NCBI GenBank assembly: GCA_050273025.1
Contig: CP158635.1
Coordinates: 8,804,001 to 8,868,000 of the forward strand
Length of the DNA stretch: 64,000 nt
Direction of reading: 5' to 3'
From: Cenococcum geophilum
Taxonomy: Eukaryota
In this document: piece after piece, positions 21,029 to 29,959 of the stretch
Layout: each line of letters opens with the position of its first letter
Position numbering within the stretch: position 1 is the stretch's first letter
Notes under the pieces: generated by a model
Seen by the model: the letters and a program-made list of their open reading frames with translations, nothing else
What the model was told of the DNA's origin: nothing
Database searches by the model: none
Made by a program: the position numbers and the translations under genes

Positions 21029-21258
21029 TTAGGAAAAAATTTACTAGCATCTAATTTTACTTTTCTGCCATTTTAGCATTTTTTAGCATTTCTAGCATTT
21101 TCTAGCATTTAGCAGCTAAATGCGGCATTTATTATTAAGTACTAGCATTTAGCGCCAAATGCCGCATTTATAATTAAGTATTAGCATTTAGCTACTAAAT
21201 GCTAGAAAATGCTAAAATGGCAGAAAAGTAAAATTAGATGCTAGTAATTTTTTCCTAA
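21029..21258. repeat. Foldback palindrome at the left end of the TIR element
   Basis: ttaggaaaaaatttactagcatctaattttacttttctgccattttagcattt... pairs with ...aaatgctaaaatggcagaaaagtaaaattagatgctagtaattttttcctaa. Confidence 0.93.
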
Positions 21259-21259
21259 A

Positions 21260-21745
21260 GTTCTATATAAAGTTTAAAGTTTTACACAAAGTTCCGCACG
21301 AAGCTCTACATAAAGCTCTACACGAAGTTCTATATAAAGCTTTACACGAAGTTCTGTATAAAGCTCTATATAAAGCTCTACATAAAGCTTTGCATAAAGC
21401 TCTGCATAAAGCTCTACATAAGGCTCTGCACGAAGTTCTACATAAGGCTCTATACAAGGCTCTATACGAAGCTTTATATAAAGCTCTGCACAAAGTTCTA
21501 CATAAAGCTCTATACGAAGCTCTATATAAAGCTCTGCATAAAGTTCTATACAAAGCTCTATACGAAGTTCTATATAAAGCTCTGTACGAAGTTCTATACA
21601 AAGCTCTGCACGAAGCTCTGTATAAAGCTCTGCATAAAGCTCTATATAAAGCTTTGCACAAAGCTCTATACAAGGCTCTACACAAGGCTCTATATAAAGC
21701 TCTGCATATAAAGGCTCTGCATAAGGCTCTACGCGAAGCTCTACA
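21260..21745. repeat. 12-bp minisatellite (aaagctctgcac-type, ~40 units)
   Basis: Directly visible; source of the spurious ALHK / RALC repeat ORFs. Confidence 0.95.
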
Positions 21746-21960
21746 CGGGGTGCAGCTAAGTAGGGTTATGGAAAAGTTAAATAGGGTCACCAATAGGGGT
21801 CGGCGAAAGCTAAATAGGGTCACCAATAGAGCGCCGGGAAAAGGTCGGCGGGGTCACACTTTTACCTATACAGAACACGCATTGGTAGCCATATTTAACT
21901 TAAGTGATTACACAAACCAAAATATCTAGGGCATATACTACGCATATACAGGCATATAGG

Positions 21961-22066
21961 ACATATATATATATATATACACACATATATATATATATAT
22001 ACACACATATATATATATATATACACACATATATATATATATATACACACATATATATATATATAT
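21961..22066. repeat. (TA)n/(CA)n microsatellite, probably a (CA)n tract partly converted by RIP
   Basis: TA runs interrupted by residual cacac. Confidence 0.85.
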
Positions 22067-22089
22067 TTACGCGTGTTATAGTATATAAA

Positions 22090-25000
22090 TAATAAGTAAA
22101 AACTATACTAAGGCAAACGAGAGTATAGCAGGATAGTTAAACGGCCTACTAGTTAGTATGCACAACCATATACTACGCATATGCTAAGTATACGCAGGCA
22201 ATCTAGAGCTTACCTAATATTAAATATAAAGACGATAGTTCTTAAGATAATATAATCGGCGGAGAGGGTATTAAAGATAAGGAGGGTAAGGAGGAGGATA
22301 AGGAGGGCAAGGGTTAAGATAGTATATAATAGCGGCTTCCATTTTATATGGGTCTCTCTAAGGTAAAACTATATCCGACTTTATGCATAAGCTATATATA
22401 TGCTTAGAATAGCTAGGGAACACTCCAAGACTATAGAGCACTTGTTAGCTCTAACGGTAAGTATTAAGTTATTATCTAAGAGGTAATAGACCATATTGTA
22501 ATGCCAGAATATCCAGCAACTAGGAAAGAAGGAATTGCACACTTTATCTACAAAGCAATACCTCTGCTGTCTATAGATGTAGATAAAAAAACGGTATATA
22601 AGGTTATTAATTGGTATATATTAAAGGTAAGTAATATATATGCAAAGCATATACTATATTTATACATCTAGTAGATTTAATTCTCTTTTTATTAAACTAG
22701 TAGCCCTAGGATTACACAACTATAGCTTCTTAGTGAAAACAATTGGGAGAGTAGAAAAGCATTCCACTAAGCGTTTAAATATAGCGGTATTAGACACTAT
22801 AAGTACGCCTATAAGGATATGCTTAGTATATGCTTAGTATATAATAGGGTTAAGCTTAAATTAATTAACAACCTCCGAAAGTGTAGTAGTCGTCCATACT
22901 AGGTAGTAGAGATTAATAAAATGCTTAAGTAAAGTATAGAGAAGTAAGTATTATCTATATACGTTAGGTATATACTTATAATATACAGCTACTACTACGG
23001 TGTTCTATAATTATAGCGGTAGTATATCTACCTTAGTATATAAGAACGTGTATATAGTAAAAGCAGACTAATAATGTTTTTTTGGTATAGAGTACGTATA
23101 TATCCGGCGTATGCGCGATATATACTTATTATATATAGGTAGAGTTTATTAGTTGTTCTAGTAGCAGTGATACTAAACCATAGTATACTGCCTAGCCTTT
23201 ATTATTAATAACTGCCCAGGTAGATATTTAATACCTTCGTTTACTTATTAAATATAGAGTTTAGGAAGTTAAATAAGAATGTACCTATATTGGACATATA
23301 ACGTCAAAGCGAAAATATTGTGGTATGTAATGTATATATCGTACATGCGCTATATATATGCTGAGCCGATGTAGGATTTAACCACCTATAAGGCTAAGGT
23401 AGGATAGTGGGCCGAATATGTAGTGCATAGTTAGACTGCTATATTCCTGTTAATATGGCACGGTATCCTTATATTTGCCTTATTACACGAAATTCTTATA
23501 TATATTATCTACTACATCTAATAAAGCTACCAATCGACTTTGCTAATGATGTAGTTGAAGCAATAAAGTAGGTGGATGTCCTAAGCCTTATTATACGTAT
23601 ACTCCATATATGCATAGTATATATAAATGAAACTACTTACCATTATATAGGTCGATTTATCCTATCGCCGCAGTACTATATTTTATGTAGGAAGTATAAA
23701 ACGCAGACACTACGTGCCGTATATAGTAGTCTTAATATTAAGGATTGAATTACTACTCTAATTCGGAAGGAAAGGATGCTATAATTCCTAGAGGGGACGG
23801 TATATGCAGGTGAGTATAGGTTAGATATACGCTAAGCATATACAGAGGCTAAGCGTAGTAGGTGTACTACGCGAGTTCTCTATTAATTAATATAAAGAGA
23901 ACACCGAGTAATGGATTTGGGTAATTTATAACTTTAACGACGAGCATTTCCTTATTGTATGTTGTATATATATATAAGCTAAAGTATTTTAACGCGTAAC
24001 ATGTATTGAAATAGACCTATTATTTAAGATAGTTTAAGGTAAAATAAATTTATTCTTAATTGTAGGATAGGACGAGAATTCTAAATATATGCATACCCTA
24101 TGCTATATATATGCCATGCATAAGCTAAACACTTATAGGAATTAAGGTGTGGGTATACGCCTTTCTTAACCTAGAAACACGTGCTGCGTATATAGGGATA
24201 TTTTAGCTAGTATTTAAGGTTTTAGGTAATACTGCTCAATTATCTATATAATTTGTATATATTTACGGAACTGGACTTCGCACTGCTATAGTTGATATGT
24301 ATAAGAAATAAGCCGGTGGTAAGTATACGCTCTATATATGCTTAGTATATACTAGGCATATGCTTATAATATATAGGCTTTGGAGATTACCTATATATAA
24401 TTAACCCATTCCGTAAATGGGATGAATACCTTTAGTATATACTTGTATTCTGCCTAGTACATATTAAATAAAACTTTATAAAGCGCTTTCGAACTTATAA
24501 AGTAAGATATATTATAGAGTAGATATAGGAAGCGGAGATAGAGCAGAAACTAACAGCGCGTATATAAAGTATATGCATACTATATCCGGAGCTTACATTT
24601 TAAATAAATAACAAGAAGAAACTATAGATACTAGCCGAGCTTATAAAGGAAAAGTTAAAGGTTCCTTATAAGTGGTGGGCATATACACGGAAGCATACTG
24701 GAATTGGTAAAAGTAGTCACTTTTAAGAAAATAACTTTACTGGTTAAAAATTATGCGTGCTTACTGCCGTACTACGGTAACGGTATATGCTCTGTATATA
24801 CTCTGCATATTCTAATATTTTAGTATAGGCTTAAACTTCGTATATAAGAAATGTTTAATCTATAAGAGCTATACGAAGAGACGGGAATAGATAATATATG
24901 GAAAAATTAGAGTAACTTAAAGCGGATAGTAGTACAGCTATAGAAATAATGTATGCATATATGCCGTATATGTAAAGCATATACTAAGCTTAAGTAGCGT

Positions 25001-25480
25001 AGAAATAGCAGAAATTAGCTAAGCGGCGAGCTAGAAATCCTAGCCTAAATTTTCCTTAGAATTCTTAGAATCTATTTAATACCCCTAAGCCTACTATATC
25101 TAGTAGCCAGATTATCTCGCAGATAAGTATAGTAGATAATAATATTATATTAGTATTGGATACGTCGCGGGTATCTACCGTATATGCAGCGGAGATGCTA
25201 CTACTACTATTACGAAGTTAAACACCCCGGACTACGGGTAAGAGGCATAGGTCTTACCTATCTATAAAGGAGCTAGAAAAGGAGGCATATATACTACATA
25301 TAGAAAATATAGAGTGACGAATTAACAAATTAAAATAAGCTAAAGACGTATATAATAAAGTAAAAGAACTAGTAGAGCTTAAGAAGTGGGTATAGGAGCA
25401 TAATGTTAGTATATAGGGCGCATATATATAGTATATGTATAGAAAGTATTATATAGAGTTCTATAACGAATAAAGAATTA
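22090..25480 (+). pseudogene. Multi-exon DDE transposase, Mutator(MULE)-like
   Basis: De-RIPped YICLITRNSHTHHPP (~23470-23520), IEMDLSFK (D at 24014), TVDMCKKQAGG (D at 24294), LVFCLVH (CxxH at 24451-24462), HTGIGESSH (E at 24709, RIPped gaa>aaa); many ~50-bp GT-AG introns; ends approximate. Confidence 0.72.
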
Positions 25481-25659
25481 ATTAATATAGACCTATCGCC
25501 CCGTGCTCTATATTGGGTATATGCCTAGCCTACCTACTAAACAAACCCTAATAAAACTCCGACTGTGCATAATGTATACTATATGCTATATGCGTAGCGT
25601 GCAGGCCTAGTATATGCTAGGACTTATAGCTTAGGACTTATATAGTAAAGGCGAGTTAA

Positions 25660-27450
25660 GTAGCGGGTTCTGCCTGTGGCTTATATAGAGTATAAGCATA
25701 ATATACGTAACGGAAGGAACCAAACTTACTAGAGCTCTTACCTCTACTATAATAGCCTATTGGCTTTTTGCTTGCTGGTGCTAAATATTAGCTATATATA
25801 TATAGGGTATATATAAGATAAGCTTACCCCTTTAGCGGTGGGTAGACGGCGAGGGGGACTCCTCGTAGTTGTCTGGTGGGGTTGGGCCGCGCTATATATA
25901 TAGTTAGCGTATACTAAATATATACAGGTGAAATATTGACCCTACGTTTTAAGCCGGTGGAGGGAGTAAACAGGCTGACGCGCTGTTTCTCTTTTATTAG
26001 TATACGCCTAGCATAAGTACGCGTTAACCTATAGTTAGTAGAAGACAATGGGGGTTTATATATATGAAGTATATGCGTATATAAGCTAGCAATATAACCA
26101 AGTAGTGGTTTTAGTAATGTATATGTAGGGCCTATATAAAGTCAGACTTTGCTAGTCTCCTAAATATAAAGATAAGCGTTTATTTCCGAATTGGGTAGTA
26201 ATTCTAGCGGTAGCTGTGCTTGTTCCTTATATACGCTACCCTTAGGCCTATAAGTACCCTTAGGTCTAAAATTAAACTTAGGGGGAATAAGTATATATAT
26301 AGATAGATAGATAGATATATTAGGGTATAGTGCGCATATATAGAAGCGACACAAGTGCTCTTACCTTGCGATGGAATTGCCTGCCAAATTAGGTAGTAAA
26401 CCCCTGGTCTTAAGCACTGTATTTAGTTAGATTATACTAGATATATACTCTGAAATTCTTAACCCTAAAGGGCTACGGCTGTGTGTAGTGTTAGTACTAT
26501 ATATATAGTGCATGTACAAACCTACCTGGGCTTATATAGGTACCTAGTATTTCGCCAGCCACTAAAGAGAACGAAACGCTTTAGGGCGCTGCGTTATATT
26601 AGCGTTGTATATACATAGCATATACTAGGTATATACTTCTCCCCCGTAATTAACTCCGCAGCTAACATGTTGGTAGTAGGAGGGTTGGTTACTACATATA
26701 GTAAGTATATACCTTTAGTAAACTGCACAGTAATATATACGGGTACTAATATACTCGTTGCGGATATAGCAGCGGTACTATAACTCTATTAGTAGGATGT
26801 AGATACTATATATATACAGAATATATATTAGGCTAGGCCGTAAAGACCTAGCCGCATATCTGCGTGCTATTTACTATAATATCGCAGCTATATTTATTGT
26901 TAGCATATACTGTATATAAGGTATAAATATGCGACCTATACTATAGAGTTAATAGTAGATAGCGCGGAGGTAGGGTTAGGTAGATTTAGTTTACGCTTAG
27001 TATATGCGTACTTTTTGCGTAGAGCCTTTCCGGTACCTACTTACGTTGTTTTAGATAGTTATAGCTGGGGCTGTAAGGTTAGTATATGCTATAGGTATAC
27101 GGCTTTAGATTTACGTACGCCTTTTACCTACTACTGCTATGGCGGCGCATACTTTATCTACTATAAGCATATACTTTGTATACGCGTTCTCTATAACTAG
27201 TATTACCTAGTTAGGGTTAGGGTTAGGGATCGGGCCTATATACTTCTATTAATATATACTTCTTCTAGGTATATACGAAGCATATACTTACTATAGTAGT
27301 ACCTAAAGGCGCTAGGGTTAGTGGCACCGGCCACCTACGGATTGTTAAAGTCTGTAATTATAAGGCTTATAGTGAGTATAGGCTAAGCGTATACCAAAGT
27401 AAAATTAAGATATTAATGTTGCTTTAGCTAGATGTTAGCATATACAGCGC
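25660..27450 (-). pseudogene. Second, convergent multi-exon gene of the TIR element (unknown function)
   Basis: Repeated minus-strand intron signals (cta..ttagc..cttac on the plus strand) alternating with short GC-richer, Pro-rich exons. Confidence 0.45.
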
Positions 27451-27469
27451 TTATATAGTAGTAAGTTCT

Positions 27470-28445
27470 TTGATTAACGTCTGATACGGATCCTATCTAG
27501 GCCCACGCAGACTACTCTGTACACAAGGGAAACTTATAAATTGATAAGAAGAAAACCCTTGTTGATATAGGGGATGGAAAAACCCTATGAGCCACCTCAG
27601 TAGGATGAAAAACCCCTATTTTGCTATGTCTGTCCGTAGCGGCGGCCCTGCGGGCCTACGGCTACGTCTTGTCCTCCTTGGATGATTCGAACTCCTTGGG
27701 AACCACTGCTTCCTTTACCAGGACATACAGTCCTTGCCTGATTTGATCGCTGTACTGTTATTTCCTATATCTTGGCCATCTCCTGTGTGCTATCTCTTGT
27801 TTAACCATTGCCATATACGCTATGCCTCCCCCCCCCCTAAGGCCTATTAAAGGCGTAAGGGGGATTTATCTATAAACTACTACTATACCATACTATGAGG
27901 CGAGCGGGACGTGTATACCTGGGTATCTTTTGTGCCTAGGCCCTAGTTACTAGGCCCTCGCTAAGGGTCACCACTCCTTGAGAGGAGATAGGAAAACCGT
28001 ACGGTGTCGTCCAGGCTGCCAGGTTTTTTTTTTGGTATTCGATAGTTAATGGCGAGTGACCGCATGCTCCGCGGGCGATCGCCCTGGGGGTTAGGAGGGG
28101 CCGTATATTTGCTCGTTGCTCGTCCGTTCGCAATAGCTCGTTCGTTAATAGGAGGTCGTTGATGCTTTCTATTGGGGGTCGGGGGATGCTATCGAATGCC
28201 GCGCATCTATGTTGGATTGTATAGGTGCTTAGCAGGGGAACAGTAATGGCTGTATTGTGTGAAGGGGTACCGTCTATAGTGGTTTTCGAGATCTCACTAT
28301 CCCGTGTGAAAACTTTTTACTACGCCCCACGACTATATAACCACCACCAGGCCCACCAACACGCTGTGCGACGTCTCTGCGTTGGCTCTGGATAAGATCT
28401 AGGTTCGTAGCCGTCACCACGTATAGGTGCAGAGTCCGATTTTGA
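27470..28445 (-). other. Weakly RIPped island with a possible short ORF and 3' hairpin
   Basis: CA/TG content clearly higher than the flanks; ORF fragment 27936-28133 extendable through RIP stops; hairpin ccgtag..ggccc tgc gggcc tacgg at ~27634-27661. Confidence 0.4.
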
Positions 28446-29019
28446 CGGCCTATAGCGCTTATATATAGGCTATATAGTATATACTTGTGGCGTATGCTGT
28501 GGTATTATAGAGAAGTTCTAGTGCGACCGCCATTATTGTGGATATATAACGCGTATACACGGTCCATATTTTAATAACTTAGCTCACTTACTTTATGCGG
28601 TTACTAGTAGGATATATATGCCCCACATATGCAAGCTACGCGTTATTTAATATTTACGATTTATTAAATACCGGAAATTATTAAGCACTATGAATTTTTA
28701 TTAAAAATTAAAATTATTTTATATATACGCTATATATGCAGAAACTTAGTAGGGTTAGAAGCTAAGTATAGTTAGAAAGGTTCTAACCCTATTAAACTTT
28801 ATAACCTTACCGAGTTTTTCTATAACCTTGCCAAGCTATAAGCCTAGCTCTACGTATAGAGGCTCTACACGAAGCTTCGTATTAGGTCCCCACTATATTC
28901 CCAATAGCCTCTATATATGCCTCTGCTAAGTATACCCCTTATATACACCTAGGTAGCCACCTTATTTTTTACCCTTCCTTATATCCTCCCTACCTAGGAA
29001 GATACCAGAACGATAGGTA

Positions 29020-29170
29020 ATAGACGACTATTACTGGAGCTAGACAACCGTCAGAGCTAAACAACCGTTATTAAAGCTAGACGACCGTCGCCGGAGCTAG
29101 ATAACCGTTGCTAGAGCTAAACAACCGTCGTTATCGCTATATGACCGTCGCCAGAGCTATATAACAACCG
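29020..29170. repeat. ~22-bp minisatellite (agacgaccgtcgccggagct-type, ~7 units)
   Basis: Directly visible. Confidence 0.85.
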
Positions 29171-29231
29171 TTTAAACAACTAGCTAGCGAATATAATAAA
29201 CAATTCGATTAATTGATTAAATTAAGGTAAT

Positions 29232-29424
29232 ATAGACAGGTAGGCATAGATAGGTAGGGATAGATGGGTAGGTATAGATAGACAGACAGATAGATAGATA
29301 GGTAGATAGGTAAGTAGGTAGGTAGATAGGTAGGTAGGTAGGTAGATAGGTAGGTAGGTAGGTAGGTAAGTAAGTAGGCAGGCAGGCAGGTAGGTAGGTA
29401 AGTAGGTTAGTAGGTAGGCAGGTA
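29232..29424. repeat. (TAGG/TAGA/CAGG)n tetranucleotide tract
   Basis: Directly visible. Confidence 0.9.
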
Positions 29425-29534
29425 GAAGAGAACCGTCGCTATATTATATTAAATTATCTAAAATAATATAATTTATTTTGCACTAACTGCGTAGGAAGAG
29501 TAATACTTATTTATTGCTTAAAGTAAGTAAGATA

Positions 29535-29742
29535 TATAGAATGCGCGAGAAGGGTATTATATACAGAATGTGTAAGAAGGGCATTATGTACAGAATGCGC
29601 GAGAAGGGTATTATATATAGAATGCGCGAGAAGGGCATTATGTATAGAATGCGCGAGAAGGGCATTATATACAGAACGCGCGAGAAGGGCATTATATACA
29701 GAATGCGCGAGAAGGGCATTATGTACAGAATACGCAAAATGT
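29535..29742. repeat. 27-bp minisatellite (agaatgcgcgagaagggcattatgtac, ~7.5 units)
   Basis: Directly visible; explains three overlapping 9-aa-repeat ORFs. Confidence 0.95.
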
Positions 29743-29959
29743 GTAATTAGCTGCACTGCATTGTTAAATATAGTAGTATATAGTAGTATGCCGCACTATA
29801 TTATTAAATATAGCAGTATACTACACTGTATTATTAAATGCAGTAGTATGCCGCACCTTAGTTAATACTATACGCTACACATTATAGTGCGCGGAATGCG
29901 CATTTGGCCGCCAAATGCTGCTAAATGCTGTAAAAATGCTGGTAAATTTTTTCCTAACG

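Follow-up and report, generated by a model that had tools for sequence, protein, structure and literature searches.

Why do the introns of one transposon resemble each other, when unrelated introns are not expected to? The question is raised by a stretch of 64,000 nucleotides from Cenococcum geophilum (assembly GCA_050273025.1, contig CP158635.1, positions 8,804,001 to 8,868,000, forward strand; hereafter the window). An earlier note had seen one short repeated motif in the introns of an element bounded by terminal inverted repeats (TIRs); either one intron sequence had spread through the element, in an introner-like manner, or the introns hosted dispersed protein-binding or structural sites. 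Judged from its sequence, the element is a copy of a Mutator-type DNA transposon, inactivated by repeat-induced point mutation (RIP), with two convergent genes and 27 introns: gene 1 for a predicted DDE transposase, gene 2 for a predicted accessory protein with one C2H2 finger. We lean, with modest confidence, towards reading the motif arrays as family-specific DNA docking sites for the gene-2 protein, in the manner of the VANC protein and VANDAL transposons of plants.

A palindrome with a period of 11 bp

The repeat noticed in the earlier note is real. Counting both strands, the window has 21 matches to GCATATAC, against 2.37 expected and a maximum of 11 among 100 dinucleotide shuffles; all of them lie between 21931 and 27445. 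If RIP changes are tolerated, 43 of the 56 sites in the window are inside the element; pairs of such sites 11 bp apart number eight inside and none outside, in agreement with the early impression that the motif is not evident in the neighbouring retrotransposons. As the window is RIP-mutated throughout, RIP alone does not produce the motif.

From the comparison of copies, the ancestral motif is the palindrome GCATATGC, and GCATATAC and GTATATGC are its RIP products; a repeated core had thus been correctly seen, in its mutated forms. Across 36 copies motif position 2 is T in 44% of cases and position 7 is A in 42%, both being RIP changes. The central TA must be ancestral, since C or G (in at least two copies) was seen there at 0 of 31 exact sites versus 69 of 266 exonic TA. 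Three subfamilies were distinguished, and consensus counts refer to their de-RIP consensuses, built from 35 of the 36 aligned full copies.

There are 48 arrays in the de-RIP consensus. The earlier description, two to four copies of a unit of about 11 bp, holds: they comprise 18 doublets, 11 triplets, 3 quadruplets and 16 singles. Among gaps of up to 40 nt, 26/31, 21/27 and 14/15 in the three subfamilies are exactly 11 bp; motif neighbours at offsets of plus or minus 11 match in 71 of 148 cases, and at the other offsets from 8 to 15 in 0–1. The linkers between sites vary (21 kinds among 26), hence the arrays are not plain tandem repeats.

Furthermore, the motif is conserved. When two subfamilies were compared, intron motif positions were defined from the third; transversions were found at 6/335, 4/358 and 2/254 such positions and at 69/797, 67/772 and 39/905 other intron positions. 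The rates are 0.8–1.8% in the motif, 4.3–8.7% in the rest of the introns and 2.0–3.2% in exons, with P-values from 0.006 to 6e-8, which are optimistic because the subfamilies are related. One could speculate that slippage, gene conversion or RIP bias produced the motif as a neutral by-product: GCA is the most RIP-resistant CA context, and some arrays of the gene-less derivatives described below repeat TAA/TTA linkers, as slippage would. This origin is very improbable and largely refuted by the ancestral central TA, the differing linkers, a divergence of motif positions 5–8 times lower and the equally RIPped neighbours that lack the motif.

Introns and beyond

The motif (with at most one mismatch) is present in all 27 introns of the subfamily-1 consensus and is exact in 19 of them, or in 23 when any of the three subfamilies is counted; intron shuffles gave 0.6 exact sites (maximum 3) against the 19 observed. 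In the RIPped window copy a form with zero or one change is retained in 13 of 27 introns. As a correction to the coincidence of motif and introns proposed earlier, only 11 of the 21 window matches to GCATATAC are intronic. Coding exons account for 6 and the non-coding 5′ end for 2; one is intergenic, and one falls where splicing is uncertain. Of four introns that had been named, 23810-23861 and 24951-24997 were exact, 24319-24376 had been placed with an error of 1 nt, and the donor of 24777-24828 lies 6 nt earlier than was thought.

The density of sites is 47 in 1405 intron nucleotides versus 12 in 3594 coding nucleotides, and 13–21 per kb in untranslated regions (UTRs) and intergenic DNA. Five exact sites lie in coding exons, two pairs spaced by 11 bp included; the expectation by codon shuffling is 1.4, and 1 of 300 shuffles reached five. 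The TIRs contain 1 motif site in 294 nt. The motif is thus no special property of introns, which simply offer the element room to carry it.

The same distribution bears on the idea of a splicing signal that works at the RNA level, e.g. in element-specific splicing control by the gene-2 protein. The ten-fold enrichment in introns would suit such a role, as would the last site being followed by TAA, TGA, TTA or TCA in 15 of 27 introns, where it overlaps the branch site, and the overlap of a sister family's motif, AAC..GTT, with CTAAC. Nevertheless, phased pairs are found in coding exons, UTRs, intergenic DNA and gene-less derivatives, and an 11-nt period with free linkers would suit a double helix rather than single-stranded RNA; we regard a splicing role as quite improbable.

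Old introns, exchanged motif

An exon search of the same genome revealed a sister family (loci L065-L072, L074 and L076) and an unmutated single relative, L073, whose transposase is 27% identical to gene 1. Of the 12 introns of gene 1, seven have the same alignment column and phase in L073 and one is displaced by a codon; two lie close by, where the alignment is poor, and two have no counterpart. The sister consensus carries 33 AAC..GTT sites and no GCA..TGC, with 33 of 53 gaps being 11 bp. In introns, the element has 22 GCA..TGC and 0 AAC..GTT, L073 has 0 and 12, respectively. Shared intron positions with a different palindrome indicate that the arrays were written into pre-existing introns, the motif being exchanged and the geometry kept. 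The TIRs of the two families are alike by eye, while the internal palindromes are wholly different.

These data dispose of the introner-like spread suggested at first. The introns are indeed similar in length (45–58 nt, with a single exception of 88) and have the motif in common, as copies of one intron might. However, just one of 351 intron pairs was similar at E<=1e-5, over 28 nt of the interior and not end to end; after masking of the motif, identity is 0.43 versus 0.41 in shuffles, and the comparison with a homologous transposase shows 7 of 12 positions in common with a family that has another motif. We leave this explanation next to no probability.

The relative L073 (4885-8198, minus strand; about 3400990-3404300 of contig C4 in the own genome, G000) is an unmutated transposase with an open frame and 14 introns, with ~70% identity to the RIPped sister family; from its sequence, it is possibly domesticated. 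Loci L131 and L138 carry AAC-NN-GTT arrays and resemble the sister consensus little or not at all.

Gene-less derivatives and distant relatives

The exact GCATATGC doublet is present 36 times in 178 Mb of the genome (reverse control, 0). Seven doublets are in or beside long copies, one is in a short derivative within L064, and 28 are in 18 loci that we read. All 18 loci match the terminal region of the element family, 13 with both ends and 5 with one end; one of them (L130) additionally holds a gene-2 remnant. Seven measured miniature derivatives (minis) are 809–1133 bp long and have 11–22 sites, no open reading frame over 74 aa and, in 6 of 7 cases as read by eye, a 9-bp target-site duplication; their interiors align to the full element only via motif patches. 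Among the 18 doublet loci read there was no host-gene or host-promoter array. A parallel reading of nine sister-family loci (seven long copies, one short match, one unassigned) gave no gene-less minis of that family. We rejected L075 as a distant family with GCATATGC; it is a sister-type transposase carrying an inserted GCATATGC mini.

Indirect evidence suggests that the motif is present in distant transposase relatives. From 35 transposase matches we counted 23 unspliced proteins at 33–56% identity and set aside 9 close and 3 spliced proteins; two exonic flanks were also dropped. The read-through introns of the counted proteins yield 13 GCATATGC-coded tripeptides, in 10 of the 23; 5000 shuffles gave a mean of 0.7 and a maximum of 4.

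That distant relatives have the same motif could be accounted for by a conserved host factor: the element may have gathered sites for a dimeric host activator, and the same 8-mer has been published as a plant phosphate-response element, known as P1BS. We consider this origin distinctly unlikely, as all 18 doublet loci read are derivatives of the element family, none being a host promoter, and the sister family in the same genome has another palindrome at the same spacing.

The two genes and their RNA

Gene 1 has 62 in-frame stops in the window copy. OJD12483.1 of Blastomyces percursus shares 43% identity with it, and KAB8228235.1 of Aspergillus alliaceus is also related. The D, D, CxxH and E columns were read by eye in the transposase alignment; D, D and E are common to the transposase P0019 and to L073, and CxxH to P0019, L073 having GxxH instead. 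C/DxxH is the motif name of Mutator/MULE DDE transposases. The Pfam MULE family had no match in the eight proteins scanned. The structure model of the transposase (P0019) is of low confidence (pLDDT 59.5), and its fold match to ISCth4 (rank 17, Z 6.0) is within background.

Gene 2 has 11 stops in the window copy, and its ATG is lost. An assembled contig yielded an intact spliced protein, P0047, which matches the gene-2 model with 88% identity over 348 aa and one gap. A second intact relative, P0048, lacks a 77-residue stretch kept in P0047, so splicing there is variable or uncertain. Residues C78, C88, H101 and H106 are invariant in 5 of 5 aligned proteins; Tricladium varicosporioides, Aspergillus tanneri and A. 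piperis have homologues at 46–58% identity in which the finger is invariant. When P0047-P0051 were scanned with Pfam, the matches were weak ones to C2H2 and an SNF2-type N-terminal piece in P0051; a DUF3716 or Zn2Cys6 identity was rejected, neither being among the Pfam matches. Atlas leads (0.85–0.91, mostly C2H2) are weak, the structure model (pLDDT 33) is unusable and fold searches were uninformative. Presumably, by the finger recognition code, Arg at +6 and Ser at +3 would suggest G-C and fit GCA, a hint too weak to count. The sister gene 2 also shows a C2H2 pattern, together with a cysteine cluster.

Four RNA runs (X2, X3, X10 and X21) were aligned to one copy of the element, L026. Among the 15 of 51 joints listed, 9 of the 15 gene-2 introns were matched exactly and two more within 2–3 nt; no joint among those listed belonged to a transposase intron, and the gene-1 introns are derived from frame and alignment. 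Depth in three metatranscriptome runs of three studies was 143–888, 217–1072 and 30–201 for gene 2 versus 0–34, 0–61 and 0–19 for the transposase, an excess of about ten- to a hundred-fold for gene 2, contig depth being a crude measure to which DNA may contribute. Some gene-2 RNA pieces are identical to the RIPped L026. At one RNA joint (L026 5925-5978, window ~26417-26443) the donor lies 2 nt upstream of its ancestral place and uses a GT that the RIP-mutated copy contains, which suggests that transcripts are made from damaged copies and are spliced. High RNA depth was also observed over the left TIR (L026 1298-1501), with loose ends unlike the full element; these are possibly mini-element transcripts.

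What binds the arrays

A symmetric site, a period of one helical turn, free linkers, conservation, invasion of exons and retention in gene-less mobile derivatives together argue for a function in cis as DNA-binding sites. The proposal of dispersed protein-binding sites is in this way indirectly supported, though not as a property of introns. The arrays would be docking sites in double-stranded DNA, retained by selection on the transposon; a sequence-specific protein would recognize the two-fold symmetric site and, with sites packed one helical turn apart, neighbouring proteins would all lie on one face of the DNA. An expressed finger protein of the element, together with another palindrome in the sister family, makes the accessory protein the likeliest binder, and the gene-2 product could act as a dimer or oligomer. 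It might coat the whole element (introns, UTRs, the intergenic stretch and tolerant codons) and keep it open or transcribed, or ready it for transposition, family-specifically, as VANC does for VANDAL. The element would then be a fungal counterpart of some plant transposons that switch themselves back on. Protein binding, the gene-2 identity of the binder, its dimeric or oligomeric state and the anti-silencing or activating effect are steps that we infer.

The transposase itself might bind the internal arrays, for self-activation or transpososome assembly, with gene 2 having another role. The transposase-only L073 keeps the palindrome of its family, minis retain arrays plus both ends, and the AtMu1 transposase alone activates cognate copies, according to the accessible part of bioRxiv 10.64898/2026.08.24.746577. 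The same part of that source reports AtMu1 binding within copies to peak at the TIRs; the TIRs of our element carry a different subrepeat and a single motif site, and those of the two families look alike while their internal palindromes differ completely. We find a transposase binder unlikely.

Several observations speak against the gene-2 protein as the binder, or narrow what it could do. The introns of L073 keep AAC..GTT and no gene 2 aligns beside it, a situation which a transposase or host binder fits equally well. Homology between the accessory proteins of the two families was not detected by alignment (3.2 bits; 3 of 500 shuffles scored higher), and Pfam zf-C2H2 matches were all below the cut-off (best E 0.0013–0.24). 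Contig depth is a poor measure of expression, and the raw-read run X21 was near-empty with no joints. No shielding of the motif from RIP was seen in the comparison of C kept in motif GCA with that in other GCA (0.65/0.66, 0.48/0.53 and 0.63/0.68); as the motif loses C at the ordinary rate and all 36 full copies are dead, any anti-silencing stops short of RIP. Finally, the interior of the minis might be what is left of a different, decayed gene rich in introns.

Comparison with known systems

With VANDAL/VANC of Arabidopsis, as the available text of PMC5735166 and PMC10398659 describes it, the element shares Mutator-type structure with an accessory gene, a short (there 8–9 bp) motif that has built up in non-coding DNA (introns, intergenic and terminal parts), a motif that differs between related families, and its presence also in non-cognate or short elements (AT9TSD1). 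Of the VANC-type features we found a family-specific short motif enriched in non-coding regions and an expressed accessory protein encoded by the element. To judge from the same portions of these sources, the differences lie in the host, a fungus with RIP; in the motif, a perfect palindrome that forms arrays of 1–4 with a strict 11-bp period and free linkers in place of tandem repeats and that enters coding exons; and in the accessory protein, which has a single C2H2 finger and no VANC-like Pfam match. We liken the element to VANDAL/VANC and do not class it as a VANC system.

The nearest fungal architecture, as far as the available part of PMC6446971 goes, is that of Mutyl of Yarrowia lipolytica (mutB), which differs in its 22-bp TIRs; that part mentions no internal motif arrays. 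We found no fungal report of such arrays in our searches of an open-access library. The accessible text of bioRxiv 10.64898/2026.08.24.746577 describes for Spm/TnpA and AtMu1 what is proposed here, a sequence-specific activation, encoded by the element, of cognate and non-autonomous copies; AtMu1 has its sites in the TIRs and lacks an accessory gene; here the sites extend across the whole interior. Introners, in the part of PMC9860276 available to us, are likewise several short, mutually similar introns; here the similarity is restricted to the interior motif, not end to end, and the intron positions are old. The pattern, in which DNA sites fill introns as room that is otherwise free, could pass for intron spread.

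A wider possibility, offered tentatively and in our opinion somewhat doubtful, is that an ascomycete Mutator clade independently evolved VANC-like self-recognition. In each family a single-finger protein would oligomerize along phased palindromes in every intron and keep cognate copies and minis active despite silencing; its target would have switched between GCA-TA-TGC and AAC-NN-GTT, with the 3-2-3 site and the 11-bp period kept. If true, the RIP-damaged copies that are still transcribed would be a trace of this recognition. In plants, sequence-specific anti-silencing by transposon accessory proteins is already established. The candidate protein exists intact (P0047, P0048), the candidate site is an exact 8-mer doublet and the sister family is a built-in specificity control, so the idea is testable by one binding assay.

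Structure and copies of the element

A search of G000 gave at least 46 matches to the element, with 40 of 104 candidates scored; 38 of the match places were fetched, and the element ends and the insertion were defined from these copies. The earlier note gave a range up to 28950; the element ends at 28845, and 27458-28453 is an unrelated insertion (Table 1). The ends, about 150 bp each, carry inverted GGTCAC-type subrepeats. A target-site duplication of at least 8 bp (one mismatch allowed), which we read as 9 bp, was found in 21 of 26 scorable full copies (9 of 35 were not scorable); the available part of PMC6446971 gives 8–11 bp as a Mutator/MULE feature. The assignment to Mutator/MULE is supported by this duplication, the TIRs and the DDE and CxxH residues.

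All 36 full-length copies aligned (26 from G000, 10 from metagenomes) are dead, with at least 32 and 6 stops. No intact copy was seen among the G000 matches found or the 26 full G000 copies, all being RIP-damaged; 31 metagenome loci likewise show RIP-type composition.

Table 1. Features of the element in window coordinates
Feature	Position	Strand	Basis or remark
Mutator-type element	21746..28845		~6.1 kb minus insert; ends by aligning copies
Left 9-bp target-site duplication	21737..21745	+	1 mismatch versus right copy
Right 9-bp target-site duplication	28846..28854	+	1 mismatch versus left copy
Left TIR	21746..21895	+	short GGTCAC-type subrepeats, distinct from array motif
Right TIR	28700..28845	-	inner boundary approximate
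Dispersed GCATATGC arrays, 11-bp period	21931..28560		43 RIP-tolerant sites in window copy
Gene 1, predicted DDE transposase	22089..25419	+	de-RIP consensus model aligned to P0019, P0025, L073
Gene-1 introns 1-6	22152-22197, 22363-22407, 22627-22674, 22944-22988, 23092-23138, 23323-23374	+	inferred
Gene-1 introns 7-12	23597-23650, 23810-23861, 24087-24138, 24319-24376, 24777-24828, 24951-24997	+	inferred
Gene 2, predicted accessory protein, ~300-355 aa, one C2H2 finger	25620..27370	-	RNA joints and P0047; 3′ end approximate
Gene-2 coding introns 1-7	27236-27291, 27152-27199, 27071-27118, 26986-27040, 26888-26939, 26778-26826, 26692-26740	-	RNA joints/model
Gene-2 coding introns 8-14	26589-26636, 26479-26525, 26417-26443 (partly deleted here), 26277-26364, 25892-25940, 25775-25827, 25680-25729	-	RNA joints/model
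Predicted C2H2 finger C-x9-C-x3-F-x5-Y-x2-H-x4-H	26745..26887	-	split by intron 26778-26826
Gene-2 5′-UTR intron, motif-bearing, broken by insertion	27423..28484	-	RNA joint at L026 6988/7042
Unrelated high-copy insertion, 1 kb, without motif	27458..28453		other copies lack the insertion

The insertion, of which 40 were scored among 866 candidates in G000, is by its sequence probably solo-LTR-like (LTR, long terminal repeat); it landed within the motif array of the gene-2 5′-UTR intron. A TA/CA microsatellite at 21955-22070, in the 5′ region of the transposase gene, varies among copies.

The element is itself an insertion in an outer TIR-bounded repeat (~21030-29958), with a hairpin with 57-bp arms at 21035-21253, 12-bp tandem arrays at 21270-21745 and other arrays at 29020-29740. 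A 12-bp tandem array of similar kind is the insertion site of several copies (window 21737; flanks of L027, L029 and L120), hinting at target preference or at insertions being tolerated there.

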